From a virus (Duplodnaviria > Heunggongvirae > Uroviricota > Caudoviricetes), in IMG/VR virus record IMGVR_UViG_3300016674_000066: a stretch of DNA of 64,000 nucleotides; one strand, written 5' to 3'. This document shows, in pieces, positions 20,078 to 49,836 of the stretch (position 1 is its first letter; each line of letters begins with the position of its first letter). The position numbers were made by a program, and so were the translations under genes. The notes under the pieces are model-generated. The model was not told where the DNA came from, did not search any database, and saw only the letters and a list, made by a program, of their open reading frames with translations.

Positions 20078-20116
20078 TCCTTTGAAAAGTTGAGCCCCCA
20101 GTATACAACAAAATGT
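20078..20116 (-). terminator. Hairpin terminator or attenuator downstream of ssb
   Basis: Perfect 12-bp stem GTTGAGCCCCCA/TGGGGGCTCAAC, followed on the minus strand by TTTTC. Confidence 0.5.
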
Positions 20117-20132
20117 TGGGGGCTCAACAAAA

Positions 20133-23766: not shown

Positions 23767-23842
23767 TTGAACTCCTGTTGGTGGTTGAGTGACTGCAGTC
23801 TAACACAAAATGTTGGCCAGTCAACACAAAGTACCGGCCAAA

Positions 23843-25830: not shown

Positions 25831-25831
25831 A

Positions 25832-25859
25832 GTATACACACATTTTTTGCTACACCAAC
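25832..25859 (-). promoter_or_regulatory. Leftward sigma70-like promoter (P_L-like): TTGGTG-N16-TATACT
   Basis: Hexamers read on the minus strand; the operator palindrome CCAACATTTTGTTG overlaps the -35 element. Confidence 0.4.
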
Positions 25860-25984
25860 ATTTTGTTGAGTAAATGTTGTGCTGCGGCCACACCAAGAAC
25901 CGGGGTCTGACAGAGAGACCCGGAGCCGGTTGCCAAGCTCGCCTCAATGAGGCGCTCAAGAAAGATTGCCACACAAAAAAAGTG

Positions 25985-33277: not shown

Positions 33278-33401
33278 GTTGGTTGCGCCAGGCAGCCCGT
33301 AGTACAGGGCGATGAAGATGACGGCGGCGGCCCCCAGTAGAGATATCCACACGACGGGGTCGTCGCTGGAGGCGATCAGGCGGACGATTGTTTTCAAGGT
33401 G
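33278..33401 (-). CDS. Possible small hydrophobic peptide (TTG start)
   Basis: AGGAG RBS; the first gene after the promoter/operator at 33410-33460. Confidence 0.25.
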
Positions 33402-33477
33402 CTCTCCTGTAAAGCGTTGAAGAAACACCTCTATTATCAACAAAAAGTTGCGTGGCAACTGTTGTGTTTTTGCGACG

Positions 33478-34188: not shown

Positions 34189-34713
34189 AGGAATCCTTTC
34201 TTACTGACAAGGAGGTTGGTAAACATCTTCCTGAAACCTCATCACCCAAGGGAGCGTTGGAATCCCTGACCGCAGGGAGGCCCAAACCCACGAACGCATC
34301 GCGAGTTCAGGCCTCCCCGCGAAGGTCGACACCCAGTGGTCGGTCGTCACCCCTTCGGTTGTCTAAAGCGCCGGTACGCGCAGAAGCTGTGCCAATCAAC
34401 CCCATGTACCTGGGTCAAGCTCGCGCATTGGCATTCGGCGCGCTGGTGGTTTGAGCTGCATCCTTCCACCTCTCGCACAACCCGGATCGAGACCGCACCC
34501 CTATCTCACAGGGATTGGTGACGCATGAGGCGTGTGCCAGTCGACGTGGAAAGCAAAAGCCCTCTGGTTCCTTCCTCTCCGGTGGAAACCTCGGCACCTT
34601 TCGATGCTTTGGCGGAGAGGAGGAGCCAGAGGGCTCGATGTCTTGCAGGTTTCCACGCCTGACGCTGCGAAGTATAGCAACAAAATGTTGGCGTGGGAAG
34701 TGTCGACAAAGAA

Positions 34714-34760: not shown

Positions 34761-34894
34761 ATCAGAGGTAGTGGGGTTACTTCATCTGGGGCTCCTCGGA
34801 TTGGTTGGTGTTGGACTGTTTGTCAATGCATCACAAAGGATGAGCCCCCATTGTGCATGCCGGCCGTAGAAAAAAGCCATACCCGACAAGAGTG

Positions 34895-34963
34895 TGTGGT
34901 TATATGTTGCAATGTTTTTGTTCTGTGTGCAACAATTACTTCAACGCAAACACAGAGGTCGAT
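34895..34963 (+). promoter_or_regulatory. Cassette promoter/operator module, copy 1
   Basis: TTGCAAtgTTTTTGTTCTGTGTGCAACAATTAC...CGCAAACACA..ATG; homologous to the modules at 37.4, 40.7, 44.2 and 47.1 kb. Confidence 0.5.
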
Positions 34964-35290
34964 ATGGACAACACCAGCTTACGCAACGCACGCATCAACT
35001 CCTTTGCCGGCCAGGCCGTCATCGCGAGCCTGAGTACTGCCGGGTCGACCCGAGTACCGAACGGTGCGCGCCGCATCTTCATCGAGTTCCTGGTTCGTGA
35101 TGGCTGGCGCCGCCGCGACGCAGCCCATGAGTTCGACGAGTTCCTGGTCTGCAACGGCGTGGCCCGCACCAAGGATAGCTACCTGGTCGTCCGCCGCACC
35201 GGCGCGCGCACCTGCCTTGCCCGGGCGCAGCGTGAGTCGGTCTACCTGACCTTTGCCAACGCCATCAACCACGCAACCTTCGAGGCATGA
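34964..35290 (+). CDS. Hypothetical protein (108 aa); first gene of cassette 1
   Basis: ORF track, internal ATG. Confidence 0.45.
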   Translation: MDNTSLRNARINSFAGQAVIASLSTAGSTRVPNGARRIFIEFLVRDGWRRRDAAHEFDEFLVCNGVARTKDSYLVVRRTGARTCLARAQRESVYLTFANAINHATFEA

Positions 35291-35291
35291 C

Positions 35292-35483
35292 ATGAGCAAC
35301 ATCCCAGCGCCGCTCAAGTCCGGCCACTTGTGCCAGGACTGTGACGGAACCGGCGCCGATCGCGCCAAGACCCAGGATGCCGCCCGCAAGGGGCTGCTGT
35401 CTGGCGGCGGATACATCCGCTGCTGGACCTGCAACGGCAACGGCCTGGACCCCGCAGCCTATTTCAACTGGAGTTCCAAGTGA
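35292..35483 (+). CDS. Small zinc-ribbon protein
   Basis: CQDCDGTG...CWTCNGNG. Confidence 0.45.
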   Translation: MSNIPAPLKSGHLCQDCDGTGADRAKTQDAARKGLLSGGGYIRCWTCNGNGLDPAAYFNWSSK

Positions 35484-35761
35484 GCGCATTCCAAGCCAAC
35501 ACCGTGATCCTGGCCGCGACGCTCACCGTCAGTGGCAACAAGGCCATCTACGAGATCGATGAGCACAAACTCGCCGGCCGCGCCTACCCAGGGCAAAGCC
35601 AGAACGCTCGGCTCATTGAGCTCGGCAAGCTGCTCGCCGTGAAGAACGGCGGCATATGGTTCAACAAGCGCGACGGCCGCGCCAGCTGGTCTGAGCGCAT
35701 CACCGACCGCAAAACCTTGGCTCTCCTGGAGAGCTATCCGCTCGCATCACTGGAGCAGTAA
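35480..35761 (+). CDS. Hypothetical protein (93 aa, GTG start)
   Basis: ORF track. Confidence 0.4.
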   Translation: MSAFQANTVILAATLTVSGNKAIYEIDEHKLAGRAYPGQSQNARLIELGKLLAVKNGGIWFNKRDGRASWSERITDRKTLALLESYPLASLEQ

Positions 35762-36078
35762 TGCATCGCATCGAAATGACGGAGGTCGACCAGCGCATCG
35801 CCAAGGTGTGCGACCCGGCCACAGCCAACCGCTATGCGGTGGTCTACCACAACCCCAACACCGGCGAGCAGTGGCTGGTAGCTCTCGTACTACCCGGCGA
35901 CATCGGCCGCTTCAGAGAGGCGTTGATCGCCCAGGGCTGCGAGATCGTGGTTGCCAACCTGGAGGGAGGCGAGTGGAACTCCGTCGCCTGGCTGCAGCGC
36001 TACCGCAAGGATGCGCCGCTGCAGGAAATCGCCGACAACCTCCGCGCCCTTGGTGGTCGCGGCTTTTACTTCAACTGA
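35761..36078 (+). CDS. Hypothetical protein (105 aa)
   Basis: ORF track. Confidence 0.45.
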   Translation: MHRIEMTEVDQRIAKVCDPATANRYAVVYHNPNTGEQWLVALVLPGDIGRFREALIAQGCEIVVANLEGGEWNSVAWLQRYRKDAPLQEIADNLRALGGRGFYFN

Positions 36079-36083
36079 CAACC

Positions 36084-36635
36084 ATGAGCTACACAGACAT
36101 CATCAGCGACGGCGGGCTGGACCCTCGTAACGCCGCAGATACCGACGCCGCGCGTCTCGCCGCCCACCGCGACCTGCACCGCACCGTGCACCAGGACATC
36201 ACCGAAGCCGTCCGCCACCGCATCATGGTCGAAGCCGCCAACACCGAGGCAGAGATCCGATGCAAGCTGATCGACATGGGCTGGCGCCCGCCGACCAAGC
36301 CTGTCAACCAGCCGCAGGTGCCCACAAAAGCGTGGCTGCACGCCACCAGCGACGCCTGCGTCACCACGGACCCAACCGCTTACGACAAAGGGCGCCAGCT
36401 GGTCCTCAAGGACGACGTGTGCGACCACGTCGAGTGGCTCGAGGCAGGCATCGACGAGTGGCGTGGCGAAGCGATGACGCAGCGCAAACACGCATCCGCC
36501 GCGCGCGCCACGGCAACAATAGCCATCCGCCACCTGCAAGCCATCCTAAACGAGAGCCGCACGGCAACCGAGTCCTGGCAAGCCGAGCAGGAGGCGCGTC
36601 AGTGGCTCCTCAGTATCGGAAGCGAACCGCGCTGA
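36084..36635 (+). CDS. Hypothetical protein (about 183 aa)
   Basis: Internal ATG lying after the stop of the upstream gene. Confidence 0.45.
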   Translation: MSYTDIISDGGLDPRNAADTDAARLAAHRDLHRTVHQDITEAVRHRIMVEAANTEAEIRCKLIDMGWRPPTKPVNQPQVPTKAWLHATSDACVTTDPTAYDKGRQLVLKDDVCDHVEWLEAGIDEWRGEAMTQRKHASAARATATIAIRHLQAILNESRTATESWQAEQEARQWLLSIGSEPR

Positions 36636-36667
36636 GCCGCACCCATCAACCAACCGGAGATTGATCC

Positions 36668-37006
36668 ATGAAAAAACTCGCCATCGCCATTGCCGCCCTC
36701 GCGCTTTCGGCTGCATCACACGCCCAGTCCTGGACTGGCAACGACCTGCTGACTCGCCTGCAGTCAGACGAGCACGGCTCACGCATGGCCGCCCTTGGCT
36801 ACGTGCGCGGCATCGCTGACGCGCTGCAGGGTGAGATCTTTTGCCCGCCCGACGGCGTGACCTATGGCCAGGCCTACGACGTCGTGGCCAACTGGCTGAC
36901 CGTCAATGCTGCGCAGCGGCACCGTGGAGCTGGGCCACTGACGATCGTTGCCCTGGCATCAACCTGGCCCTGCAAACAGCAGCGGCAGCAGAAAGGTGGC
37001 GCCTGA
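36668..37006 (+). CDS. Secreted hypothetical protein carrying a signal peptide
   Basis: MKKLAIAIAALALSAASHAQ. Confidence 0.5.
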   Translation: MKKLAIAIAALALSAASHAQSWTGNDLLTRLQSDEHGSRMAALGYVRGIADALQGEIFCPPDGVTYGQAYDVVANWLTVNAAQRHRGAGPLTIVALASTWPCKQQRQQKGGA

Positions 37007-37076
37007 TGTGTCGCCGGCCTAACCTCTTTGGGTGGTTCGTCTAGGCCATCATCATCTTGATTTTTTGGATTGCATC

Positions 37077-37406
37077 ATGAACGAAAACGAAGTTATCAAG
37101 GGTCTCGCGAATCGCGTTAGCGCCATCGCCAAGCTGGAGAAAGAACTGGTCGAAGCCGAAACTGTGATGCGCAGGCTCGAGCTGAAGCTCAATGACCAGG
37201 GGGTGACCGTCGTCCTGGGTGGTGTGCATCACTCGGTCACCACCATTCGTTATGGGCAGTACGGCGGGGTCTCTTCCGAGGTCTCGCCCGGGGCCTCCGA
37301 CCTGCACGCGCTCTGCCTGAAGCTTCAGCGCAGCCACATCATTTCACTCAAGAGCAGGATCGAAGGACAGCGCTTCAAGCTCAAGAAGGAGGTTGCGCAA
37401 GTCTGA
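37077..37406 (+). CDS. Hypothetical protein (109 aa)
   Basis: ORF track, internal start. Confidence 0.4.
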   Translation: MNENEVIKGLANRVSAIAKLEKELVEAETVMRRLELKLNDQGVTVVLGGVHHSVTTIRYGQYGGVSSEVSPGASDLHALCLKLQRSHIISLKSRIEGQRFKLKKEVAQV

Positions 37407-37409
37407 CTT

Positions 37410-37477
37410 TTTTTGTCGGCTGTGTGGCAACAATTGCTTGTCTGTGCAATAATATGTTCAGCAAAGGAGTTTGAGAA
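37410..37477 (+). promoter_or_regulatory. Cassette promoter/operator module, copy 2
   Basis: TTTTTTTGTCGG...GCAACAATTGC...GCAATAATATG...GGAG..ATG. Confidence 0.45.
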
Positions 37478-37723
37478 ATGGCAACAAGGACTTTTGTCGT
37501 ACAGGTTGAGGCAAGAAAAGACATCGCCGACCTGGGCGACATCATCGCCAACCGCGCTTACACCATCGACGGCGTCGAGAACGCGACAGCTACCGAGATA
37601 ACGGTAGCAGTGGCCGATGACGCGGAGCTCAGCGTCGACATGGTCGATGACTGGCCCGACACGTTCCTGGAGCGGCTTGGCCGCGCGATCGACGGCTTCG
37701 TCGAGGGCTGGCGTGGACATTGA
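37478..37723 (+). CDS. Hypothetical protein (81 aa)
   Basis: ORF track; RBS AAAGGAG. Confidence 0.45.
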   Translation: MATRTFVVQVEARKDIADLGDIIANRAYTIDGVENATATEITVAVADDAELSVDMVDDWPDTFLERLGRAIDGFVEGWRGH

Positions 37724-37967
37724 GATCCGTGCGTGCGGCATCCCGTGCGTTGCGCGGGTGACCCACTACGTCGTCAAGAAGGGAGACCCGTCCTGCAAGG
37801 ACTCCGACCTGGACTTCTACGGGTACACGGAGCTCGAGTACGACATCCTGGATAGACGACTTCGACCGGCCTCATGGCTGGAGAGGAAGATCAGAGAAAC
37901 AAAAGGCGCCGACGACCTTGTCCGTGAGCAGGTGTTGGCCGGATTGGAAGGTGATGACCATGAGTGA
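37713..37967 (+). CDS. Hypothetical protein (84 aa, GTG start)
   Basis: ORF track. Confidence 0.4.
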   Translation: MDIEIRACGIPCVARVTHYVVKKGDPSCKDSDLDFYGYTELEYDILDRRLRPASWLERKIRETKGADDLVREQVLAGLEGDDHE

Positions 37968-38319
37968 TTGCGACAGCTGCAGCGGGTGCCCGGCATCCGC
38001 AGACCCCGGGACTTGCGAGGATGCATCGAAGCAAGTGCTCTCCCATGGCCTGGTCCAGTACACGATCGAGAGCGATGTTGATACGTGTCGCGGGTGCGTC
38101 GCCCTTGGAGACGGTGACCTGTGTCAGGAGCTCTCAGCCAAGCACAAGTGCGCGACCAACAGCGTCATCTTTGCGCGCGTCCCATCCCGGCTTTCGCCGT
38201 CCGACTTCGATGAGCTGAAGAAGAGGGCCATCGAGCTGCATGCTGGCGAGTGGCTGCATCACTGGGGTCGCCTGGTCGAGGATGAGGTTCTGCGCCGCAA
38301 CGGGGTGATCGTCAAATGA
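37954..38319 (+). CDS. Cys-rich hypothetical protein
   Basis: CDSCSGCPASADPGTCED. Confidence 0.4.
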   Translation: MTMSDCDSCSGCPASADPGTCEDASKQVLSHGLVQYTIESDVDTCRGCVALGDGDLCQELSAKHKCATNSVIFARVPSRLSPSDFDELKKRAIELHAGEWLHHWGRLVEDEVLRRNGVIVK

Positions 38320-38960
38320 AGTTCTCGTTTGACCCGTCCTACGTGCCGCTGCTGTCTCGCTTCATGGCGAAGCACGACATCCGCTACTACCTCAACGGCA
38401 TCCGCGTGGAGCCGTCCGAAAAGGGTGGCGTCTACCTGGTGGCCACCAACGGCCACATCATGCTGGTGATCCACGACGCCTCCGGCACCTTCGAGGGTGA
38501 CGCCAAAAGCTATGCATCCATCAGGCTCACGCCGTGGTTCATTTCGGCCTGCAAGTCTCGCGACGTGAAGTCCTACGTGCTGCGCGCACACCTGGATGGC
38601 AAGCGCTTGTACATCGGGCCGGAGTCCGGCGAGCACCACCACACCCTGGAGAAATTCGTTCAGGGCGGGAGCCCGTTCATCGAAGGCAACTTCCCAAACT
38701 GGCGACGCCTGCTGCCGGACTTCTCAAGTCTGGAATCCGGCGGCTTTGTCAACGGTGGCGTGGCTACCAGTAGCCTGGTCCCGTTCCACACGAGCAGTAA
38801 GTACTCGGCTATCAGGCTTTGGCGCGCAACTGGTGCAACCGATGGGCAGGCCACCTACGTGCAAATGGTCGACATGCCGGAGGCGCTGGGGATCGTGATG
38901 CCGACGCGCTGCGACTACCCGCACCAGTTCATCAAGCACATGCCAGGAGCAGGAAAGTGA
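38316..38960 (+). CDS. Truncated DnaN-like sliding-clamp protein (214 aa; domain II plus part of domain III)
   Basis: DIRYYLNGIRVEPSEKGGVYLVATNGHIMLV matches DnaN RYYLNGMLFE...TVATDGHRLAV; NFPNWRRLLP matches FPDYRRVLP; the C-terminal IVMPTR matches VVMPMRL. Confidence 0.6.
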   Translation: MKFSFDPSYVPLLSRFMAKHDIRYYLNGIRVEPSEKGGVYLVATNGHIMLVIHDASGTFEGDAKSYASIRLTPWFISACKSRDVKSYVLRAHLDGKRLYIGPESGEHHHTLEKFVQGGSPFIEGNFPNWRRLLPDFSSLESGGFVNGGVATSSLVPFHTSSKYSAIRLWRATGATDGQATYVQMVDMPEALGIVMPTRCDYPHQFIKHMPGAGK

Positions 38961-39181
38961 ACAATCGCGAGCGTCAGATCAGGAAGCTGATCTCTGACTC
39001 TGGCCTGGAGTGCTCCGCACTCCGGTTAGCCAAGAGTGGGCACTACAAGGCCACGGTCGTGTCGGAGTCCGGCAGGGCCGCCCAGGCCATGTTCTCAGGG
39101 ACGCCGAGCGATCGGCGTGGCGACCTCAACAAGAAGTCCTCCCTGAGGCATTTTGCAAAGACTGGGGTGATGCGTGGCTGA
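38957..39181 (+). CDS. Hypothetical protein (74 aa, GTG start)
   Basis: ORF track. Confidence 0.35.
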   Translation: MNNRERQIRKLISDSGLECSALRLAKSGHYKATVVSESGRAAQAMFSGTPSDRRGDLNKKSSLRHFAKTGVMRG

Positions 39182-39401
39182 GGCAAAGACTTATGGCTTG
39201 TGGTGTGGGCAGCGTGCCTTCATGTGGCACGGCCACGTCCACCTGATGATCGGTGACCATGGCAGCTGGGTGAAGCTGGTTGGCCAGACCCACGACTTCC
39301 ACCCGTTCACCGAGGCGGATCTCAGAGACCCGAAATACCGCACCGACCTCAAGCGGGTTGGCGGCGAGTACGTCTCGGCCTATGCAACGAGGGTCGCCTG
39401 A
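39174..39401 (+). CDS. Hypothetical protein (75 aa)
   Basis: ORF track. Confidence 0.4.
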   Translation: MAEAKTYGLWCGQRAFMWHGHVHLMIGDHGSWVKLVGQTHDFHPFTEADLRDPKYRTDLKRVGGEYVSAYATRVA

Positions 39402-39670
39402 TGGAGTTGATGGGTTACAGCGTCTGTGCTGGGTTGAACAAGGACGTCGCCAAGAGGCAGCACTACTCCACGGTTGGCCAGTGCATCGAGGCGGTGCGCG
39501 CGGCGAGCAACCCTGGCGGGATCTGGATGGCGCCGGTCACCAGGTTCGGCGTCGGGCGGTGGATTCAGGTCGCCAGGTATGACGGCCGTGGTCGAGTTTT
39601 TGTTGGCATGGATGATGAGGAGGCCACGGAAGAGGCCTTGATCAAGCTTGCCAACTTCATGTTGTTGTGA
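39401..39670 (+). CDS. Hypothetical protein (89 aa)
   Basis: ORF track. Confidence 0.4.
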   Translation: MELMGYSVCAGLNKDVAKRQHYSTVGQCIEAVRAASNPGGIWMAPVTRFGVGRWIQVARYDGRGRVFVGMDDEEATEEALIKLANFMLL

Positions 39671-39677
39671 GGTTCCC

Positions 39678-39977
39678 ATGCGGAGGGAAGAGCGAAACAA
39701 ACTGAGGATAGATACAACAAACGACGCGGTGCGCAAGGCGCTGCGTGACAACCGGGGCGGGCTCACCACAAAGCAGGTGAGTGCCATCACGGGGCTGACC
39801 GGCGCGGCCGTCTACAACGCGCTCTACAGGTTGCCGGAGGTCTGGATAGACAGCTGGCTACTGACTGGCACACAGGGCCGCCCGTCGGCCGTCTGGAAGA
39901 TCGTGCCGGACGACTGCCCATCGCCCAAGGCGTCCGGCAGGAAGAAGTCAACCAAACGCAAGAAGGTGGTCCAATGA
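39678..39977 (+). CDS. HTH protein
   Basis: LTTKQVSAITGLTGAAVYNALYRL. Confidence 0.45.
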   Translation: MRREERNKLRIDTTNDAVRKALRDNRGGLTTKQVSAITGLTGAAVYNALYRLPEVWIDSWLLTGTQGRPSAVWKIVPDDCPSPKASGRKKSTKRKKVVQ

Positions 39978-40288
39978 AGTTCACGGACCTGCAATTGATC
40001 GAGGCTGTTGAGCAGGCCTGCCGCGAGGCGACATTCGCCTTTGCCGGGCTGCTGGAGCACGTCAAGAACGACGACGGCGCAGTCGTCCACCATGGCGGCA
40101 TGACGCCTCGGATTGCCTACATCCTGGGCGCAAACGACCAGATGGTCCGCCGACGCCTGGCGACGATGCACAAGAAGGGCCTGATGAAGCGCCATCAGGG
40201 GCGCGGCAACGGAACCATCCGTTGGTGGCCCGTCGGCCTGTTTGACCGCGTCAGCGCGGGCAAAGAAGTTTCCCAACCCGCCAACTGA
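39974..40288 (+). CDS. Hypothetical winged-helix-like protein
   Basis: ORF track. Confidence 0.4.
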   Translation: MKFTDLQLIEAVEQACREATFAFAGLLEHVKNDDGAVVHHGGMTPRIAYILGANDQMVRRRLATMHKKGLMKRHQGRGNGTIRWWPVGLFDRVSAGKEVSQPAN

Positions 40289-40300
40289 CAGGAGGTCAAC

Positions 40301-40669
40301 ATGGCAAATCTCGAAGATGTGAAAGCTCGTAGGCGCCAAGAGGCGTTCATGTCCGCCCTCAAGACCCTGGATGCCCAGGGTTGCAAGTACAAGGTCATCA
40401 AGGATGATGGTCAACAGTTCGGCGACCTGGTCCTGCAGAGCGATGTTGTTGCGCCGAAGCGGAGAGACTGCAAGCGTTACGGATACATCGAAAAAATCTC
40501 CGGCATGAAGGTGGACGACATTGTCACGATCAAGGCTGACAGTCTGGAGGACATGAAGACGCTCGCTGCCTGCTGTTGCCACTACGGGTCCAGAATTTTT
40601 GGCGTGCGCTCGATCGCATCCAAGACCAACAAAGACACCCTTGAGGTTGAGCTTTATCGAAAATACTGA
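40301..40669 (+). CDS. Hypothetical protein (122 aa)
   Basis: ORF track; RBS GGAGG. Confidence 0.45.
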   Translation: MANLEDVKARRRQEAFMSALKTLDAQGCKYKVIKDDGQQFGDLVLQSDVVAPKRRDCKRYGYIEKISGMKVDDIVTIKADSLEDMKTLAACCCHYGSRIFGVRSIASKTNKDTLEVELYRKY

Positions 40670-40689
40670 CCGTAATTCCTGAGTGTTGC

Positions 40690-40769
40690 GTGTGGGTATT
40701 GCTTGACGCTTTTTGTTCTGTCGTCAACAATTCCTTCACCGCAACACAGTTTGTTTCAGGAGTACCGCA
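40690..40769 (+). promoter_or_regulatory. Cassette promoter/operator module, copy 3
   Basis: CTTGACgcTTTTTGTTCTGTCGTCAACAATTCC..CACCGCAACACAG...AGGAG..GTG. Confidence 0.5.
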
Positions 40770-41168
40770 GTGAAGATCGAACTCAACATCGGCCTCGACG
40801 TCAAGGGCAGCACCAACACCCAGGTGCAGCGCACCGAGCGTGCCCGCAAGGCCTTGGACATCATCCGCGCCGCCGGCCTGCGCTATCAGGTCGAGCGCCT
40901 GGCCAGCCAGTACGAAGACAACGAGGGCGTGGTTCACCTCGAGGACACCCTGGTGGTCGAGGCTGACGTGCCGCCCATCGGTGGCGAGCGCACCATCAAC
41001 GCCCTGGCGTACCAGATCTGCATCGAGATCCAGCAGGAGTGCATCGCCGTCTACAACCATGTCCGCCAGCGCGGCGAGCTGATCGGCCCGAATGCCAGCT
41101 CCTGGGGCTCGTTCGACATCAACTTCTTCCGGTTCTACAGCGAGGCGGCCCTGCCGCGTGCAGCATGA
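40770..41168 (+). CDS. Hypothetical protein (GTG start)
   Basis: ORF track. Confidence 0.45.
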   Translation: MKIELNIGLDVKGSTNTQVQRTERARKALDIIRAAGLRYQVERLASQYEDNEGVVHLEDTLVVEADVPPIGGERTINALAYQICIEIQQECIAVYNHVRQRGELIGPNASSWGSFDINFFRFYSEAALPRAA

Positions 41169-41575
41169 GTGCGCAGCAGATACAGGGGAGGCTGCAAGCC
41201 CATCACGATCACGGATGGCTTGTAATCGAATCAGACTGCGGTGGGCTGTATATCAAGGTCGAGAAAGGCTCTGCCGCATCAAAATCGATGCCGGCCGCCC
41301 GCCGTCTGGTGGCTTGCTGGAATGCGTGCGAAGGCATCAGCACCGAGTCGCTGGAGCGAGGACCGCTGTCTAAGGCATTCGAGCTTGAGCAGGACCGGGC
41401 AGATTCTGCTGGGCGCCAGCGCGACGAACTGCTGGCGGCGCTGAATCAGGTGCGAGGCGAAGTGCAATACATGGCCAGCGGCATGACGCACTCGACGTGG
41501 CGAACCAAGCAAGCGCAAGATGCGATGGCAAATATCGACGCAGCCATCGCCAAGGTGAAAGGCGGTACGGCATGA
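41165..41575 (+). CDS. Ead/Ea22-like hypothetical protein (a paralog of 32315-32812)
   Basis: ARRLVACWNACEGISTESL and ...KVKGGTA. Confidence 0.5.
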   Translation: MSAQQIQGRLQAHHDHGWLVIESDCGGLYIKVEKGSAASKSMPAARRLVACWNACEGISTESLERGPLSKAFELEQDRADSAGRQRDELLAALNQVRGEVQYMASGMTHSTWRTKQAQDAMANIDAAIAKVKGGTA

Positions 41576-41799
41576 CAAAGAACGGCTGCTACAACCGCGC
41601 CCCCTTCCTCCCGGGCATCCACCTCCAGAAGCTGGAGGCCGGGCGGGGTGGGTTCGTGAACATCAAGACAATCTTCATCCCTCACCGGATGACGACCGAG
41701 TGCCAGTACAGCCGAGACCCCATGGGCCTCGGGCAAAAAGACCTCGGCTGTGTCGGGTGCAAGTGGAAAGCAGGAGAGCAGGATGCCGGCCCAACTTAG
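41572..41799 (+). CDS. Hypothetical protein (75 aa)
   Basis: ORF track. Confidence 0.4.
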   Translation: MTKNGCYNRAPFLPGIHLQKLEAGRGGFVNIKTIFIPHRMTTECQYSRDPMGLGQKDLGCVGCKWKAGEQDAGPT

Positions 41800-42037
41800 T
41801 GAAAAGGCGAAGGCGCAGATCATGGATGGGGTTGCTAGCTTCTTGGGTGCAGGAGGTGGGGCGATTAAGTTCAACGGGATCTCTTTTAGTAAGTCAGGCG
41901 ATGTGTTTCGCGTAGGGTTTTGCCACAACGGGGTCGAGATTGCATTCGAGCATGTTTCGGGTGCGAGGCTTGATCTCGGCGACATCATTCATGTCAACGG
42001 TTTTGATGGTTCCATGGGTTTGGAGATTTCAAATTGA
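41783..42037 (+). CDS. Hypothetical protein (84 aa)
   Basis: ORF track, internal start. Confidence 0.35.
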   Translation: MPAQLSEKAKAQIMDGVASFLGAGGGAIKFNGISFSKSGDVFRVGFCHNGVEIAFEHVSGARLDLGDIIHVNGFDGSMGLEISN

Positions 42038-42444
42038 GTACGAAGCAAGAGCGCGTCGAGCACGCCAACCAACTCATCCAGGCGATCGCCAAGTATGGCC
42101 GCCGGTTCTTCTACGACAAGAGGCACGACCGCGTGGCGCACATCGAGCTGCGCCGTGGCCGGGTGTACTTCGTCGACGACTACACCGGCAAAGCCATCTA
42201 CACCCACGAAACCATCTGGACCAACCGGTGGCGTGGCTTCAGCCATGGGGGCACGCTGCGCAGCCTGATCGAGCGCATGCGCGACTACATCATGGCCGGC
42301 GAACAGATACCGATCGGATTCATTGCGCCCTCGTACTACGACGACACCAAGGGCAACATCTGGGGCTACGACAGCCTGGAGGCATACAAGCTGCGCACCG
42401 AGGCCATGGGCATGCCGATCATTGATGGGGTGAGCCGTGTCTGA
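42034..42444 (+). CDS. Hypothetical protein (TTG start)
   Basis: ORF track. Confidence 0.4.
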   Translation: MSTKQERVEHANQLIQAIAKYGRRFFYDKRHDRVAHIELRRGRVYFVDDYTGKAIYTHETIWTNRWRGFSHGGTLRSLIERMRDYIMAGEQIPIGFIAPSYYDDTKGNIWGYDSLEAYKLRTEAMGMPIIDGVSRV

Positions 42445-43045
42445 TCTGAAAGCATACGTGGCCACCGATGGTGGCGATGGCTGGGCCGTTGTGTTCGGCA
42501 AGACCAATGGGCACGCTCGCCGGCTGGCGGCCGACGAGATTGGTTGCGGATTCGAGGACATCGAGATGTGCCGCCGCGACCGTCGCTTCGATGCCTACGC
42601 TGGCAAGAAGATCCCGCTGCAGGCCTACCTGGATTGCGGCTGGAGGTATGAGTGCTCGAACTGCGGCGATGTGTTCGACTCCGAGCCAGACGAGTTCCGG
42701 CTTGATGGCGAAGGTTTTCCGGTGGACACAGAGAGTCTGGCGCCGGTAGAGGACGAGATTGGCATCTACTGCTGTGCGGCCTGCCAGATGGCGGGCTACC
42801 AGGGCTTTCTTCTGCGAGGCCACAGCGACGCCGCGATAATCGAGGCGGTCGAGATCAACTTCCCTGGCGCGAAGGATGTGCAGGCCTTCAGCTCCAGGAG
42901 TGGCAGCACGGCATGGTTTCGGTTTCCGGGCTCCCATGGCCACGCAACATGGAAGGTCGGCGCCAGCGAGGTGAGCCTTGATCAGCGAGACGTACAGGCA
43001 TTTGAGGCCTGGAAGAGTGCCGGCTATCCGGTGGAAATGAATTGA
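42437..43045 (+). CDS. Hypothetical Cys-rich protein (202 aa)
   Basis: ORF track. Confidence 0.45.
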   Translation: MSDLKAYVATDGGDGWAVVFGKTNGHARRLAADEIGCGFEDIEMCRRDRRFDAYAGKKIPLQAYLDCGWRYECSNCGDVFDSEPDEFRLDGEGFPVDTESLAPVEDEIGIYCCAACQMAGYQGFLLRGHSDAAIIEAVEINFPGAKDVQAFSSRSGSTAWFRFPGSHGHATWKVGASEVSLDQRDVQAFEAWKSAGYPVEMN

Positions 43046-43052
43046 ATCTGCA

Positions 43053-43856
43053 ATGAAAAACTACATTGACCTTGTCGACAAAATCATCTGCACCGGAGAG
43101 CGCCGCCAGGACCGCACCGGCGTGGGCACGCTGTCCATCTTCGGTGGCAGCATCGAGTGGGATCTGCGCGACCGCTTCCCGCTGGTGACGGCCAAGGAGA
43201 CCCGCTGGCGCACCGCGTTCCTGGAGATGCTGTGGTTCCTGCGTGGCGAGAGCGCCATCGACTGGCTCAACAAAAACGGGTCGAAGCTCTGGGATGCCTG
43301 GGCCGATGATCGTGGCCGCCTTGGTCCCATCTACGGCGTGCAATGGCGCGGCTGGCCAGACAGCGAGGGCAACTACATCGACCAGGTTGCGGTCATGATC
43401 AACGGGATTGTCAGCAACCCGACTGGCCGCCGCCACATTGTCAGCGCCTGGAACGTAACCGACCTGGATGACATGGCTCTGCCGCCCTGCCATGCCTGGC
43501 ACCAGTGCTACGCCGGGGGCGACGAGTGGCTCGACATGCAGGTCTACCAGCGCAGCTGGGACGTTGCCCTGGGGGCTCCGTTCAACATCGCTCAGTATGC
43601 GCTGCTGTTGCATCTGTACGCCCGCGCCACCGGCCGCAAGGCGCGCCGCCTGGTGTTTGCCTATGGCGATGCCCACCTGTACCTCAATCACGTCGACACG
43701 ATGAAGCGAGTGGTCGCCGCCGGCCCGGTGTGGGGCGACAGTTCGCAGCTGGTGATCAAGACCGACAATACCGACATCGACGGGTACAAGATCGACGACT
43801 TCGACATCGTCGGCTACCACCCGCGCGAGTTCGTCAAGCTCGAGGTTGCCGTATGA
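43053..43856 (+). CDS. thyA: Thymidylate synthase
   Basis: GGSIEWDLRDRFPLVTAKE, VSAWNV, and LPPCHAWHQCY with the catalytic Cys. Confidence 0.85.
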   Translation: MKNYIDLVDKIICTGERRQDRTGVGTLSIFGGSIEWDLRDRFPLVTAKETRWRTAFLEMLWFLRGESAIDWLNKNGSKLWDAWADDRGRLGPIYGVQWRGWPDSEGNYIDQVAVMINGIVSNPTGRRHIVSAWNVTDLDDMALPPCHAWHQCYAGGDEWLDMQVYQRSWDVALGAPFNIAQYALLLHLYARATGRKARRLVFAYGDAHLYLNHVDTMKRVVAAGPVWGDSSQLVIKTDNTDIDGYKIDDFDIVGYHPREFVKLEVAV

Positions 43857-44203
43857 GTGGCTCGATCGGCGTGCGTGGCGGCACGGTGTCTGGCCGCATC
43901 CCCTTGCGCCTGGGCCTGGTGGACCTCCAGTTCCGCAAGAACCCGGAGCCGCTGAGGCGAACGGACATCCCGCCAGCAGCTGGGGCCGGACGGGTTCGCA
44001 GGGTGCAGCATGTCAAACACCCGGACGGCGTGGTACTCGAGGTCAGGCGCCTGAGTGAGCAGGCGAAGCTCTCGCGGTCCAAGATCGTTGCCGAGCTGAA
44101 GACCAAGGGCATCGAGATCGACGAAAAGGATGTCACCAGGTACGCCACCTATGCGACCCGTGGCGCCCTGGTCCCGGACGAGAACGCAGCACCCTACATC
44201 TGA
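43853..44203 (+). CDS. Hypothetical protein (116 aa)
   Basis: ATGA-type overlap with thyA. Confidence 0.45.
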   Translation: MSGSIGVRGGTVSGRIPLRLGLVDLQFRKNPEPLRRTDIPPAAGAGRVRRVQHVKHPDGVVLEVRRLSEQAKLSRSKIVAELKTKGIEIDEKDVTRYATYATRGALVPDENAAPYI

Positions 44204-44207
44204 GGAA

Positions 44208-44234
44208 AGCCCCGCCTGAGTGTGGGGTTTTTCT
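44208..44234 (+). terminator. Rho-independent terminator
   Basis: CCCCGCCTGAGTGTGGGG followed by TTTTT. Confidence 0.6.
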
Positions 44235-44304
44235 TCATTTAACTTGCAACATTTTGTTGTTGCGTCAATAATTTCTACATCGCAACGCAAACAGGAGTTC
44301 ACCA
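44235..44304 (+). promoter_or_regulatory. Cassette promoter/operator module, copy 4
   Basis: TTGCAACATTTTGTTGTTGCGTCAATAATTTC..CGCAACGCAAAcaGGAG..ATG. Confidence 0.55.
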
Positions 44305-44822
44305 TGTATTTAGGTCACCACCCCGACGGCAGCGGCGTCCAGCTTCACAGTGCTGGCGGCCTGTACCCCTACGTCATCGCACTGCGCGAGCGCTACAACA
44401 GCGAGACCGACAGCTTCGTCCGCACCTACGAAGTGACCGGCCCGGCTGCCGAGTACGAGTGCCCGACCTGGGATGAGGCAGTGGCCTTTGCAGAGGCGCG
44501 ACGCGACGAGTGGAAAGGGCGCAACAAGCCGGTCAAGGTTGAGCGACCGGCGCCGCGCCAGCCTGGCGGCATTGGCATCGAGGCCAGCGTCAAGGGCCAG
44601 CATGCCGTGGGCGTCCATCAGACGACGTTCAATGGCATCACCTACGAGACCTACTACATCGTCGGCCCGCGCGCCACGGATGAGGTGTTCTACACCCACC
44701 GCGCGGCCACCAGGGCGATCGACTACCTGGAGAGCGACTTCCACACGATCGAGCTGCAGTTCACTCGGGCACGCCAGCGCGCCTGGAGCCAGTGGGCTGC
44801 AGACCGCAACAAGACTCACTGA
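44305..44822 (+). CDS. Hypothetical protein (172 aa)
   Basis: ORF track. Confidence 0.5.
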
Positions 44823-44902
44823 TGACCCAGCCATCTGCCCGGCGCGCTGCGGCAGATGGGTGTGAATCACCGACCCATCCAAAACCTTGAAAGGAAAATG
44901 AA

Positions 44903-45130
44903 ATGCAAGACCTCGCCCAGATCCGCCGCCAGAATGGCAACCACATCAACAGCGTTGTGCCCGACCTGGTCGCCCAAGGCAAGCACGTTGTCGTCCACTA
45001 CACCGGCCTGAACTACGCGGGCCACCAGGCTTTCGACACCGCCGAGGAGGCCGCAGGCTACGCCGAGAAGAAGGCGACCGAGCGCGGCACCACCGTCAAG
45101 ACCTACAGCCCCGACCCGGTCGCAGCCTGA
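44903..45130 (+). CDS. Hypothetical protein (75 aa)
   Basis: ORF track. Confidence 0.45.
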   Translation: MQDLAQIRRQNGNHINSVVPDLVAQGKHVVVHYTGLNYAGHQAFDTAEEAAGYAEKKATERGTTVKTYSPDPVAA

Positions 45131-45174
45131 TTCATCAAGTCCGGCCCACCCGGGCCGGCACCCAGGAGTTCACG

Positions 45175-45897
45175 ATGAAAGCAGTTGAGCGTCGCATCTA
45201 CATCAACACGCCGGAGTACCACCTTTACATGCGCGCCAGGCTCCCTGGTGGAAGTTGGAACAAGAATTCTTTCGAGTTTGATGGCCACCGCTGGGCCTAC
45301 CGCTACTCATCGTTCGACGATCAAGGCGAGTACCACTTGATCTATCGATGGGTCGATGAGCCGGAAGACGCAAAGCCTGAGTCGATCGAGAACACCGTGA
45401 CGGTGCGCTACGACCTGAGTGCTGTTGAGGTCGATGGCGCCATCCGCGACAAGCTCATCGAGATGGGTTGGAGCCCGCCAGGCGCAGAGGTCGTGTTTGG
45501 TGTTGACTGGGGCGTCCATGGGGACAGGTCGTGCGCCTCCGTTGTCAAGAAGATGCCCGGCGGTGCAATCCATGTCCTGGCTACAGAGTTCGCTCCAGAC
45601 CCTATCCCAAGGACCGACGATTCCAGCGAAAACGCACCCTGGCTAACAGAGGCTCACGCCCTCTGCACAGATGCCGGTATCGAGCAGGGCGACATCACAT
45701 CGAGAATCAGGGCGCTTCGTGAGGTAATCACCGATGCGTTCTCATGGAAAAGCTTGACGCCGGACGAAATCGAGAAGGGTCGTCAGCTGACATTCAGTAC
45801 CGACAATCCGTTCTGCCCTTGCGACAGCAAGACCATGTTGAAAGCCGTGCAGTGGGCAGACCGCGAGCTGAGAAAGAAGAATGGAGTTTTGAAATGA
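45175..45897 (+). CDS. Hypothetical protein (240 aa)
   Basis: ORF track. Confidence 0.5.
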   Translation: MKAVERRIYINTPEYHLYMRARLPGGSWNKNSFEFDGHRWAYRYSSFDDQGEYHLIYRWVDEPEDAKPESIENTVTVRYDLSAVEVDGAIRDKLIEMGWSPPGAEVVFGVDWGVHGDRSCASVVKKMPGGAIHVLATEFAPDPIPRTDDSSENAPWLTEAHALCTDAGIEQGDITSRIRALREVITDAFSWKSLTPDEIEKGRQLTFSTDNPFCPCDSKTMLKAVQWADRELRKKNGVLK

Positions 45898-46529
45898 CGT
45901 TGAATGCATGGACTGGCGGGCTCGACCCAAGCTCGCCGCGAAAGGATCGGTCGACGGGCATCCCGCCCAAGCTCACGCCCGAGCAGATTGACGACATCGA
46001 CCAGGGCATGTGCGGTGAGCGCGAATGCGTGCAACCTTTCGCGCAAGGCGTCGCAGACGCTCGCGACCAGCAATGGCTCGACATGCTGTCAGCAGTGCCG
46101 GGGACTGAGAAGATCATGGACATGCTCGACAACTTTGAATACGCCGTTCTTGGTGTGATGCAAGGCCGACGCAGTCCTGATGAGCCAGCGCAAATGAAGG
46201 CCGACATCCGCGCCGCCATCGAGCAGGCGCTGGAGTCCGAGGGCGTAGCCGCACACCTCAACGGCTACAGGGAAGCGGAGCGGGCGCTGGCGGCCTGCCG
46301 AGATGTGTTCGCACCGCCAGAGCCAGGCACGGAGGCCGAGCGCCAGTGGGCTCAGGCCATGGTCGACCCGGAATCTGTGCCTGCCTACATCAAGCACCGC
46401 AAGGAGGTTTTCGAGTCCGTGCTGCGCCAGGCGCTGGCGGCGCTGGAACAGGTTGCGGCATGGGAAGAGGGAGGCAGACGCATGGCGCAAGAAGCCATCG
46501 CCGCCATCCGCAAGTGCGTGGGAAAATAA
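45894..46529 (+). CDS. Hypothetical protein (about 211 aa)
   Basis: Internal ATG with an ATGA-type overlap. Confidence 0.45.
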   Translation: MTLNAWTGGLDPSSPRKDRSTGIPPKLTPEQIDDIDQGMCGERECVQPFAQGVADARDQQWLDMLSAVPGTEKIMDMLDNFEYAVLGVMQGRRSPDEPAQMKADIRAAIEQALESEGVAAHLNGYREAERALAACRDVFAPPEPGTEAERQWAQAMVDPESVPAYIKHRKEVFESVLRQALAALEQVAAWEEGGRRMAQEAIAAIRKCVGK

Positions 46530-46533
46530 CGGC

Positions 46534-46776
46534 ATGAACATCATCATCTACACCAAGAACGGCTGCCCCAACTGCGACAGCGCGAAGCAATTGTTGGCTG
46601 CAAAGAGCCTGCCCTACACAGCGCACAACGTCGAGACCATGGAGGGCCTGGCTGCATTCGTCCCAGCCCGGGAGAAGTATCCGGCCATTCGCCAGATGCC
46701 TGCCATCATCATCAACGACCAGTACGTCGGTGGCCTGGCTGGGCTGCAGGCGGCGCTGAAGCAGCTCAACCTCTGA
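46534..46776 (+). CDS. Glutaredoxin-like protein
   Basis: IIYTKNGCPNCDSAKQLL with a CxxC active site. Confidence 0.65.
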   Translation: MNIIIYTKNGCPNCDSAKQLLAAKSLPYTAHNVETMEGLAAFVPAREKYPAIRQMPAIIINDQYVGGLAGLQAALKQLNL

Positions 46777-46786
46777 GGCGGGCGGC

Positions 46787-47134
46787 ATGAGCGACTGGAG
46801 CCAGGAGCTGGCCAAGGCGAAGGCGGAGCGCCGCACTCCGGCGCCTGATCGCATGCCGCCCAACATGAAGCCTGCCGCCAAGAAGCGCAAGAAGCCAAAG
46901 GCCAGGTTCCACGTCATGTGGCGGTCCAACCTGGGTGGCATCCTGAAGGGCGGCATGGTCGTCGGCAGGTACAAGACGATGGAAGAGGCGCTGGCCTGCA
47001 TCGAGCGCAAGGTGCGCAGCGCATACGTCAGCGGCATGCACTACCCGTCCGGCACGCCCATCGACGATCGGGTGCTGCTGGATGAGCAGGCCAAGCGCCG
47101 AGCCAGGTACTGGGTCAAAGACACCGGGGAATAG
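46787..47134 (+). CDS. Hypothetical protein (115 aa)
   Basis: ORF track. Confidence 0.45.
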   Translation: MSDWSQELAKAKAERRTPAPDRMPPNMKPAAKKRKKPKARFHVMWRSNLGGILKGGMVVGRYKTMEEALACIERKVRSAYVSGMHYPSGTPIDDRVLLDEQAKRRARYWVKDTGE

Positions 47135-47149
47135 CCCTACTTTTTTGTC

Positions 47150-47217
47150 GGGATATCTTGCAACTTTTTGTTGTGCGGTCAATAATTTCATCACCGCAAC
47201 ACAAAACGGAGAGCAAG
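47150..47217 (+). promoter_or_regulatory. Cassette promoter/operator module, copy 5
   Basis: TTGCAACTTTTTGTTGTGCGGTCAATAATTTC..CACCGCAACACAAAacGGAG..ATG. Confidence 0.55.
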
Positions 47218-47592
47218 ATGGCAAACAAGGTATTCAATCAGTTTCACGCAGGTTCCGACGTTGTCGTCGTCGGCTCGAATTCCGAGCTGGCCGACATCGA
47301 CAACCCTCGCGGCGACATCTTCGGCTTCACCGCTTACGTTGTGGCCTTCAACGAGTATGGCGACACCCGTCTGTCGCCCAGCATCGGCACCTTCCCCTCT
47401 GATCGCGCTGCCGTCGAGGCCGCCGAGAAGCAAGCCGCCGCGCTGCAGTCCCGCTACGACAACCTGGGCAAGCTGCCGGTTGGCTTTGACCGCTGGGCCG
47501 AGGGTCGGGCGATTTACGGCTCTGAGGCCTACGTCGAGTACGGCGCGGATGACGACCTGGCTTGGGAGCGTTCGCAAGAAGAGGTTTTCTAA
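47218..47592 (+). CDS. Hypothetical protein (124 aa)
   Basis: ORF track. Confidence 0.5.
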   Translation: MANKVFNQFHAGSDVVVVGSNSELADIDNPRGDIFGFTAYVVAFNEYGDTRLSPSIGTFPSDRAAVEAAEKQAAALQSRYDNLGKLPVGFDRWAEGRAIYGSEAYVEYGADDDLAWERSQEEVF

Positions 47593-47653
47593 GTCCCCAT
47601 CGCACAGCCTTCGGGCTGTCCAATGGCGATTTGCCAGAACACAGGAGATCGAA

Positions 47654-48091
47654 ATGTCCAAGACCCGCACCATCACCGCCACGTACGATGGCGTGACCTT
47701 CAAGCGCAAGACGCACCGCAACTACAGCCACGTCATCATCGGCCGCCTGGATGTCGAGAAGCTGGTTCGCTGCGAGCGCGAATTCGCCGAGAAAAACTTG
47801 CGCAGCAACTGGGGCTTCTACACCGAGGTCGCGAACGGCACTCACCGCAACATCGAAACCATGTCTCAAGCCCAGCTGGACGAAGCCAACCATGTGGCGT
47901 CGCTGGGCATCGATGGTGCAGCCAAGTATCGCGGCGACCAGGCCGAGACGCGAGCCCGCAATCGGGCTGCCAAGGGCTGGGAGCCGCTGGCCTGGGCTGG
48001 CCGCCCGGACCTGGCAGCCAAGCAGGTGGATGAATGGAAGAAGTCAATCCACTGCTTCGGCCAGGTTCTCGCCATACACGTCGACGCCTGA
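47654..48091 (+). CDS. Hypothetical protein (145 aa)
   Basis: Internal ATG with RBS ACAGGAGATCGAA. Confidence 0.45.
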   Translation: MSKTRTITATYDGVTFKRKTHRNYSHVIIGRLDVEKLVRCEREFAEKNLRSNWGFYTEVANGTHRNIETMSQAQLDEANHVASLGIDGAAKYRGDQAETRARNRAAKGWEPLAWAGRPDLAAKQVDEWKKSIHCFGQVLAIHVDA

Positions 48092-49823: not shown

Positions 49824-49836
49824 TCTGGAGGCAAGC

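Follow-up and report, generated by a model that had tools for sequence, protein, structure and literature searches.

Promoter consensus sequences that are phage-specific and repeated occur routinely in phage genomes, where tools such as PHIRE are used to find them. The morons of lambdoid phages are units consisting of a promoter, a gene and a terminator. In T4-type phages, the elements known as PeSLs (promoter-early stem-loops) are repeated cassettes of a sigma-70 promoter, a stem-loop and a Shine-Dalgarno (SD) sequence, which lie in hyperplastic regions and mediate modular shuffling (Arbiol et al. 2010, PMC2839356; Comeau et al. 2014, PMC4122927); in the phi1/RB49 comparison, 10 of 14 indels were flanked by or contiguous with PeSLs (PMC2839356). 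Cluster A mycobacteriophages, such as L5, carry stoperators, 13-mer sites whose orientation is tied to transcription (PMC9283540). Here we describe five same-strand intergenic modules, located at 34.9, 37.4, 40.7, 44.2 and 47.2 kb in a stretch of 64,000 nucleotides from an uncultured tailed phage (IMG/VR record IMGVR_UViG_3300016674_000066). This stretch, hereafter the window, is about 64 kb out of a genome of ~82 kb. The modules are probably a duplicated family of early promoters read by the host RNA polymerase. Their closest described analogue is the PeSL, to whose family they do not belong. From phage-specific promoter consensus repeats the family shows no difference in kind, being longer than the host consensus, present in many copies, oriented with transcription and common to related phages; the motif itself is clade-specific. 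The layout is common in phages and does not reveal a new kind of genetic system.

All five modules (m1 to m5) occupy intergenic gaps of 71-811 nt, the largest gaps of the plus-strand block, and follow one plan: a sigma-70-type -35 element, a T-rich spacer of 17-18 nt, an AAYAAT -10 element, a C/A-rich leader, a ribosome binding site (RBS) and a start codon. The -35 hexamers (TTGCAA, TTGACG or TGGCAA) begin at positions 34907, 37425, 40703, 44244 and 47158, and the -10 hexamers (AACAAT or AATAAT) end at 34936, 37453, 40731, 44272 and 47186. When a sigma-70 promoter was defined by -35 and -10 elements like TTGACA and TATAAT lying 16-18 nt apart, 5 of 5 modules qualified, and in each of them the -10 has A at position 2 and T at position 6. 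A generic sigma-70 scan run without prior module input found m2 to m5 (8 sites, as compared with 3.4±1.8 expected). The promoters lie 27-39 nt upstream of start codons provided with a GGAG-type RBS (5/5), and transcription would be expected to start ~7 nt after each -10. Downstream of the -10, m1, m3, m4 and m5 have a leader that reads CA(C/T)CGCAAC(A/G)CA, which is absent in m2. The initial annotation of this DNA had placed modules at these five sites, and all were present, promoter-like and at the head of a gene run. The same annotation held them to be evenly spaced; the module-to-module distances of 2518, 3278, 3541 and 2914 nt are operon-sized and not strikingly regular.

Single modules could be compared with two relatives: a variant on a 78.4-kb contig (L042), which is 91-98% identical to the window and also matches a short contig (L017/L046), and a locus (L001) whose terminase large subunit (TerL) is 85% identical. 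Module 1 (34875..34966, plus strand) has its -35 TTGCAA at 34907-34912, an N18 spacer with TTTTTGTTC, the -10 AACAAT at 34931-34936, the leader CAACGCAAACACA, the RBS AGAGG and an ATG at 34964; it is the same in L042 over the compared stretch, as far as the start codon. In module 2 (37395..37480, plus strand), the -35 TGGCAA (37425-37430) and the -10 AATAAT (37448-37453) are separated by N17, and the RBS AAGGAG precedes an ATG at 37478 with no CGCAAC leader between; in the L042 orthologue the spacer and the -10 are kept and the -35 region is altered. Module 3 (40660..40772, plus strand) consists of the -35 TTGACG (40703-40708), an N17 spacer again with TTTTTGTTC, the -10 AACAAT (40726-40731), the leader CACCGCAACACA, the RBS CAGGAG and a GTG at 40770, where the SAM-lyase gene begins; TTGAC, TTTTGTTCTGTCG, CAACAATT and CCGCAACACA are kept in L042 and the flanks differ. 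Module 4 (44202..44306, plus strand) has the -35 TTGCAA (44244-44249), N17 with the core CAACATTTTGTTG at 44247-44259, the -10 AATAAT (44267-44272), the leader CATCGCAACGCAAA, the RBS CAGGAG and an ATG at 44304. Module 5 (47135..47220, plus strand) is built alike, with the -35 TTGCAA (47158-47163), N17, the core CAACTTTTTGTTG at 47161-47173, the -10 AATAAT (47181-47186), the leader CACCGCAACACAAAA, the RBS CGGAG and an ATG at 47218; its orthologue lies at L001:1344-1418 (E 2e-15).

Every module had been thought to start with a T-run or a terminator. This description fits m4, which is preceded by a canonical intrinsic terminator with a T-tail (44202-44235), the only one of its kind among the five. 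T-runs or T-rich tails are found upstream of m2, m4 and m5; at m2 (GACTTTTTTTGTC) and m5 the run sits in the loop of a weak hairpin and looks more like an upstream A/T-rich (UP-like) tract than a terminator. The stem-loops of m1 and m3 are weak and lack a U-tract. A weak upstream stem-loop with a GTGTGGG arm is common to m1, m3, m4 and the L001 orthologue of m5 (z -1.6 for m1/m3), and stem-loop stability in the modules corresponds to z values of about -1.6 to -2.0. Generic terminators were rejected as an explanation of the repeats, since one module only has a terminator and the similarity is in promoter and leader. A sigma-54 reading of m2 (TGGCAAC..TTGC) was ruled out by inspection, the GG/GC spacing being 2 nt off. 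Resemblances to an IHF site (TCAAnnnnTT) and to the lambda operator (ATCACCGC) were partial matches seen by eye and were not used as evidence.

The relatedness of the modules was assessed by leave-one-out nhmmer searches, in which a profile made from four modules is searched for the fifth, a scheme that avoids circularity. Recovered in this way were m5 (E 3e-12), m4 (2.5e-8), m1 (4e-8) and m3 (6e-7); m2, the most divergent module, gave an E value of 0.22 only. Pairwise identity amounts to 47-72% over 61-75 aligned nt, and blastn cross-matches link m3 with m5 and m4 with m5. The two last modules, at first said to be nearly identical over about 60 bp, are less alike than that (81% identity over 58 nt, 72% over 75 nt). 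A profile search of the window returned no sixth full-length copy; the best non-self match of the module profiles was a minus-strand site at 17.4 kb (E 0.001-0.18). Together, these results indicate that the five modules are paralogous copies of one promoter-leader-RBS unit and that their similarity exceeds that of generic promoter or terminator sequence. Two points of the initial annotation were supported here: an origin by promoter duplication fits the mutual relatedness (four of five in the leave-one-out test), and a similarity beyond generic terminators is indicated by profiles that recover four modules, and m2 weakly, when one module only has a terminator.

The T-rich core of the spacer is not confined to the modules. 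The 13-nt core of m4 and m5, CAACWTTTTGTTG, has 22 matches in the window at up to 2 mismatches, against 1.28 expected, and CAAC-N5-GTTG has 12 against 1.0. In an unbiased count, TTTTGTTG was the most over-represented 8-mer of the window (12 copies, 1.7 expected); 9 of the 12 copies are intergenic, the intergenic share of the window being only ~12%. Besides those of m4 and m5, there are exact cores at 20106, 33438 and 34678 (minus strand) and at 25856 (plus strand); 6 of 6 exact cores are oriented with the downstream genes. Near-exact cores at 17378 and 23803 are likewise oriented with the genes that follow them, and all these additional copies lie within -35/-10-like hexamers. Overlap with such hexamers is the rule for nearly all intergenic copies, and the sole junction-type candidate (39652-39664) has two mismatches. 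Throughout the late block (~49.8-64 kb and 1-13.6 kb), core matches occur in coding sequence only, each of them mismatched, and promoters of this type are absent.

Five of these sites are predicted minus-strand promoters. The site at 17329..17401 has two tandem cores and reads CAACATCCTGTTG, CGCCAT, CAACCTTTTCTGC, TATAGT, with TTGCGC as -35 and the leader CACGCAACAGGAG before an ATG at 17328 on that strand. At 20100..20127, TTGAGC-N16-TATACT has an exact core (20106-20118) adjoining the -10. The promoter at 23797..23824 (TTGACT-N16-TAGACT, core CAACATTTTGTGT) heads an operon with RecT, a YqaJ-like exonuclease and SSB, and that at 33400..33457 shows TTGCCA, an exact core at 33438-33450 and then ATAATA. 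The last, at 34671..34699 (TTCCCA-N17-TATACT, exact core 34678-34690), diverges from module 1; downstream of it come a non-coding leader of 0.5 kb and the Rha/ANT gene. On the plus strand, the exact core at 25856..25868 is in a 2-kb non-coding, tRNA-bearing region, upstream of a promoter-like site, TTGGCA-N18-TAGAAT, at 25985-26014. The leftward promoters follow one another at intervals of 2.7-3.7 kb, similar to those of the rightward set.

Two arrangements of the core can be distinguished. In class A, comprising the five modules, the first core extends from the -35, with which it overlaps, over the first half of the spacer, and the position of a second core is taken by CAA(C/T)AAT, i.e. the -10. 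In class B, comprising the leftward and replication promoters, the core directly precedes a TAtAcT -10; a second, degenerate core is often found 19 nt upstream, its final TTG giving the -35. Leader types are common to both classes, the CACGCAACAGGAG leader at 17.3 kb being an example. Because the same core marks the opposite-strand sites and the 25.86-kb site, the five modules are one subclass, class A, of a general early-promoter set, that is, of a genome-wide promoter family with the directional core CAAC-(A/T)TTTT-GTTG. The picture of a discrete cassette array had to be abandoned, as the core is also present at no fewer than five opposite-strand sites (at least those at 17.4, 20.1, 23.8, 33.4 and 34.7 kb) and at 25.86 kb on the plus strand.

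Related phages carry the same elements. A relative with 67% TerL identity (L003/L019/L074, one 81-kb contig) has double-core promoters before TATAAT-type -10s, and TTTTTGTT is among its most enriched 8-mers. Class-A-like promoters are found in L001 and in a locus of a Polynucleobacter genome (L142, E 3e-4), for example TTGCAACAATTTGTTTATTGCGCAACAATTAGTTCATCAAC...AGGAG...ATG. As a negative control for the core motif we used 1.42 Mb of RdgC-bearing loci from unrelated phages and prophages, which gave 0 matches at up to 1 mismatch. The first gene of cassette 5, c5g1, has homologues at 52 metagenome loci, where it is often the first gene behind a TTGAC(A/T/G)-N17-TAnAAT promoter; some of these promoters have the same T-rich spacer and a ..CGCAAC..GGAG leader. 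The relatives thus support the view that these are real, conserved promoters, which would be recognised through their sigma-70-type elements, with the T-rich core as a clade-specific addition. As far as could be found, the combination of a T-rich CAAC-N5-GTTG core, an AAYAAT -10 and a CGCAAC leader is specific to this clade and undescribed.

The T-rich core may influence promoter strength or serve as a spacer element; alternatively, it may be the site of a factor. In the latter case it could be bound by one phage or host protein switching the early promoters together, a scheme compatible with promoter function and of rather low likelihood. The CAAC...GTTG palindrome first reported for all five modules is intact in m4 and m5 only; m1 has CAAT...GTTC, m2 CAAC...CTTG and m3 ACGC...GTTC. 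The half-sites are broken in three of five modules and the T-rich tract is what is kept, and the CAAC/GTTG stem counts 4 bp only. A separate factor would explain more easily that the core is kept as a block at two registers relative to the -10 and sometimes lies in the leader (L003/L048); the overlap of almost every intergenic copy with promoter hexamers, leaving no clear stand-alone sites, speaks against it. In favour of a factor, the TTTTGTTCTGTCG block of m3 does not vary between the window and L042 while its flanks change; against it, the motif is kept across phages with 60-67% TerL identity, which is unusual for an immunity operator. A repressor would be expected if the clade is temperate, a lifestyle suggested by its occurrence inside chromosome-sized Burkholderiales contigs. 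Above family thresholds, neither a repressor nor a candidate binder turned up, only sub-threshold helix-turn-helix (HTH) matches and an HU-like protein; the candidates that can be named are this HU/IHF-like protein (28892-29179), a weak winged HTH protein (26086-26451) and a small HTH-like protein (39678-39977).

Clade-specificity and an orientation following transcription are features that a regulator site would have in common with stoperators (PMC9283540). Like these, the core is a 13-nt motif with many genome-wide copies on both arms, oriented with transcription (PMC9283540, PMC6550527). Stoperators mostly occupy short, promoter-free intergenic spaces and have a known monomeric repressor, whereas nearly all core copies overlap promoter hexamers; the core also has palindromic ends, unlike the asymmetric stoperators. 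A more far-reaching proposal would make the core, with one to three copies per regulatory region at variable register, a clade-specific factor site, kept throughout these Burkholderiales phages and prophages of ~80 kb, that switches the whole early set and, together with hairpins, defines portable gene slots. The factor could be, say, the phage HU/IHF-like protein, or else a repressor or activator that escaped recognition; we consider the proposal unlikely. If true, core and hairpin elements would drive accessory-gene shuffling outside the T4 world.

Upstream of the HU/IHF-like gene lies a perfect palindrome, GGCCAATAGAATTGGCC (28852-28868), overlapping a TAGAAT -10 and preceded by a reverse-oriented CAACAAAGTGTTG (28837-28895, plus strand). 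This palindrome may be an autoregulatory site.

The preferred interpretation, that of duplicated early promoters, builds on direct observations in the window and its relatives: module anatomy and paralogy, core enrichment, strand and orientation bias, conservation in relatives, and gene indels at some module edges. Each module would be read by the host sigma-70 RNA polymerase holoenzyme, so that the small accessory and host-takeover genes of the rightward block, which spans 14.6 kb (34.9-49.5 kb), would be divided among five transcription units of 2.5-3.5 kb, presumably expressed early. The family would have grown by duplication of promoter-leader units, and conserved promoter, RBS and hairpin sequences would then offer short homologies for the gain, loss and movement of single genes. 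The window yielded neither an RNA polymerase nor a sigma factor of phage type. Several points weigh against this interpretation. The -10 hexamers start with A, not T, three of the -35 hexamers match TTGACA at 4 of 6 positions only, and m2 is weakly related to the other four modules. The host is uncultured, and the sigma-70 consensus used may not correspond to its preference. The 13-nt spacer block, whose register is shifted between classes A and B, exceeds known sigma-70 needs and hints at an extra factor, and the ~18 kb of the genome that lie outside the window could encode an RNA polymerase or sigma factor of the phage. Where transcription starts, when and how strongly is deduced from the DNA letters.

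Another function of the modules was considered in the light of gene content differences between relatives. Eight insertion, deletion or replacement events, all gene-sized, distinguish the window from L042 between 33 and 53 kb, and three of them touch a module. L042 lacks the gene at 40301-40669, one end of the deletion lying 28 nt before the m3 -35; it carries, exactly at the m4 RBS, an additional gene of 263 nt ("gene69"); and it lacks c5g1, the first gene after m5, the break falling within the m5 leader. The other five events lie within genes, at plain gene junctions, or correspond to replacement by a homing endonuclease. The endonuclease genes of L042 are of the HNH/AP2 type; one (8020-8973) replaces three small genes after the SAM lyase (window 41168-42025), and the other (20263-20775) lies just before the terminase gene, where one is found in L047 as well.

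The proteins encoded by gene69 and c5g1 are unrelated, and, depending on the genome, the two genes come first behind different modules. They have common flanks, GGAG(T/A)GCAAGATG on the 5' side and a hairpin element of ~60 nt on the 3' side; this element and a module bracket a "first-slot" gene that is shuffled among relatives. The element lies between cistrons at 47590..47656 (plus strand), with a second copy at 48089-48160, and ends in the RBS of the next gene; further copies are at 11459-11525 and 15584-15662 in L042 and at 1794-1859 and 2656-2732 in L001. It consists of TAAGTCCCCATCG, a UUCG-type hairpin, CCAATGGCGATTTGCCAGA and an RBS, and its stem shows compensatory changes between copies. 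Since it has no U-tract, it is perhaps not a terminator and may rather be an element of RNA processing or stability. L001 has an m5-like module followed by c5g1, the hairpin and a homologue of gene69; the left edge of module 5 is exactly where its homology to the window sets in, and this homology stops after the hairpin element. The unit formed by module 5, c5g1 and the hairpin element resembles a moron in being a mosaic unit of ~0.5 kb with sharp homology edges relative to L001; compared with the moron terminator, the 3' hairpin here lacks a U-tract and is not an evident terminator, and morons are one inserted gene while most modules precede long runs of several genes. In other relatives, too, the cassette genes are differently distributed: L048 has genes of cassettes 1 and 5 together on the other strand, and L019 has ThyA followed by the RecT block on the same strand.

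These rearrangements raise the possibility that the repeats serve mainly as portable homology for the shuffling, insertion and excision of the genes they flank, as proposed for PeSLs, a role compatible with promoter function and one to which we give a minor, still appreciable, likelihood. The three module-associated events, the exchange of unrelated genes between common flanks, the homology edges with L001 and the redistribution of cassette genes argue for it. It is weakened by the fact that five of the eight events lie elsewhere and that no event spans module to module, nor was any whole cassette gained or lost, in a comparison resting on one close variant (L042). The gain or loss of cassettes at the repeats, foreseen in the initial annotation, was thus confirmed for some genes exactly at module edges and not for exchanges between modules. 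By hand count, ~3 of 10 junction breakpoints are at modules, which make up ~5 of 45 junctions; breakpoints are enriched at modules relative to random sequence and not clearly so relative to other gene junctions. Some of the mosaic joints do fall on conserved promoter, leader and hairpin elements.

Modules and PeSLs have much in common: both are intergenic composites of ~70-100 nt made of an AT-rich or stem-loop part, a sigma-70-like early promoter, an SD sequence and a start codon, in line with the published PeSL description (PMC2839356). Both are concentrated in plastic regions of small unknown genes, show inverted repeats between or over the -35 and -10, and adjoin some of the indels between close relatives. 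PeSLs serve single ORFans and number ~50 per genome, whereas the modules head 5-10 genes, and 64 kb contain five of them along with ~6 related sites. The stem-loop of a PeSL is stable, rich in G/C and acts as a terminator or attenuator; those found here are weak, and one module only has a real terminator. Phage and host lineages are unrelated in the two cases: PeSLs belong to T4-type myoviruses, whereas the window phage has an SU10-type portal, a distinct capsid and TerL, a genome of ~82 kb and an association with Burkholderiales. The comparison with the close variant provides one modest, concrete case, outside T4-type phages, of genes being shuffled at the boundaries of conserved promoters and hairpins.

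Same-strand repeats between blocks of small unknown genes also bear a superficial likeness to an integron, in which the repeats would be sites for a dedicated recombinase that captures cassettes. This is highly improbable: a Pfam scan of the window proteins, with several small open reading frames (ORFs) outside the scan, detected no domain of an integrase or recombinase; the repeats have no attC-like imperfect inverted repeats or GTTRRRY core sites; blocks contain 5-10 genes rather than one; and the repeats show all parts of a promoter and are also present, as ordinary promoters, on the other strand. The absence of a recombinase (in the scanned proteins) and of attC features, together with the multi-gene blocks, effectively refutes a system of this type.

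Each module heads a run of 5-10 same-strand genes, mostly small and nearly all of unknown function. Above family thresholds were a Rap1a-like protein (36668), a YuA gp49-like protein (37713), the SAM lyase that is the first gene of cassette 3 (40770), ThyA (43053), a glutaredoxin (46534) and a ProQ-C-like protein (48715). Thus ThyA and the glutaredoxin listed in the initial annotation are present; its beta-clamp and HTH proteins correspond to matches below Pfam thresholds, and no Ea22-like protein was among the family matches. PHROGs annotation of ten cassette proteins added almost no function. The content (SAM lyase, ThyA, glutaredoxin) fits an early, accessory or host-takeover region. The c5g1 gene (47218-47592, plus strand; 124 aa) belongs to no Pfam or PHROG family and represents a family widespread in diverse phages. 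Because it is often the first gene behind a strong consensus promoter, it is a candidate for an early host-takeover function; genes located directly behind strong early promoters, such as the SAM lyase and the c5g1 family, are promising candidates for host-takeover or anti-defence functions.

The window has a G+C content of 61%, and the phage is GC-rich and podovirus-like, with an SU10-type portal, and is found in Burkholderiales. Genes for TerL (53574-55088), the SU10-type portal (55770-58055) and the capsid protein (59652-60632) were identified. A leftward block at 14-24 kb encodes RecT, a YqaJ-like exonuclease, SSB, RdgC and an SPFH protein; a rightward replication block at 26-31 kb encodes a DnaC/IstB-like loader and the HU-like protein; the Rha/ANT gene is at 33478-34152. 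GenBank contained no near-identical phage and no DNA match, and the best TerL match to a GenBank phage was 42%. The same phage is present in at least three other assemblies (L043-L045, two from 82.4-kb contigs), with 99.99-100% identity over the overlap. In metagenomes, homologues of the portal number more than 1,200, and many of these are on 78-85-kb contigs; relatives with 59-64% TerL identity are embedded in large contigs of Polynucleobacter, Polaromonas, Undibacterium, Cupriavidus, Hydrogenophaga, Janthinobacterium and Massilia. The phage belongs to a large uncharacterised clade of freshwater and soil Burkholderiales phages, and the lifestyle of this clade is probably temperate, given its presence inside chromosome-sized contigs. 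For this group of uncultured phages (at least 1,200 portal homologues), the modules offer a usable promoter model, with which early transcription units can be annotated from sequence alone. Other searches yielded less: the SAM-lyase query of IMG/VR returned the L017 contig only, queries with Rha/ANT and with an RdgC alignment returned mostly unrelated phages, and the exact 43-position module pattern had no match in JGI metagenome contigs.

Rfam identified three tRNAs in the window and no other RNA family, and relaxed searches of two large non-coding blocks gave no credible RNA family. The boundary between early and late genes, at 49.6-49.8 kb, is non-coding and carries tRNA-Asn (49630-49705) between two terminator-like hairpins (49603-49623 and 49798-49815), with lysis and packaging genes beyond. 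A TTGACA-N14-TATAAT site at 49231-49256, whose TGTGTATAATTCGC part is kept in L001, makes the interval 49119-49837 a candidate late or tRNA promoter region. The 2-kb non-coding block at 24100-26085 carries minus-strand tRNA-Arg(TCT) (24131-24207) and tRNA-Gln(TTG) (25049-25124); ARAGORN added an odd tRNA with a 4-base anticodon at 25380-25449, unconfirmed by Rfam. Core copies face one another in this block, at 25856 on the plus strand and 25978-26006 on the minus strand. In the 0.8-kb gap between the Rha/ANT gene and module 1, the minus-strand promoter at 34699-34671 is directly followed by a long imperfect hairpin (~34546-34646) and ~350 nt with no convincing ORF, and a bidirectional terminator-like hairpin lies at ~34704-34746; the interval 34190-34760 had no family match in Rfam.

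At the left end of the window, two giant "polyvalent" proteins of 2346 and 2173 aa are encoded side by side (30-7070 and 7083-13604, plus strand). Their domains include inorganic pyrophosphatase, NUDIX, ART-PolyVal, DUF7178 and LPD38, and a role as virion-borne or injected effectors may be presumed. Two otherwise different small genes on opposite strands contain the same 62-nt segment in inverted orientation, at 41296-41357 on the plus strand and 32593-32654 on the minus strand; the identity of the two copies at 54 of 62 positions suggests a shared protein segment or a recent exchange. Finally, many early genes have a common translation-initiation context, CA(A)GGAGTTCAnnATG, found at 44294, 45165, 48148 and 48466 and at the minus-strand starts 17328 and 23766; GGAGTTCC is an over-represented 8-mer (9 copies, 1.3 expected). 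This shared context gives short homologies at gene starts.

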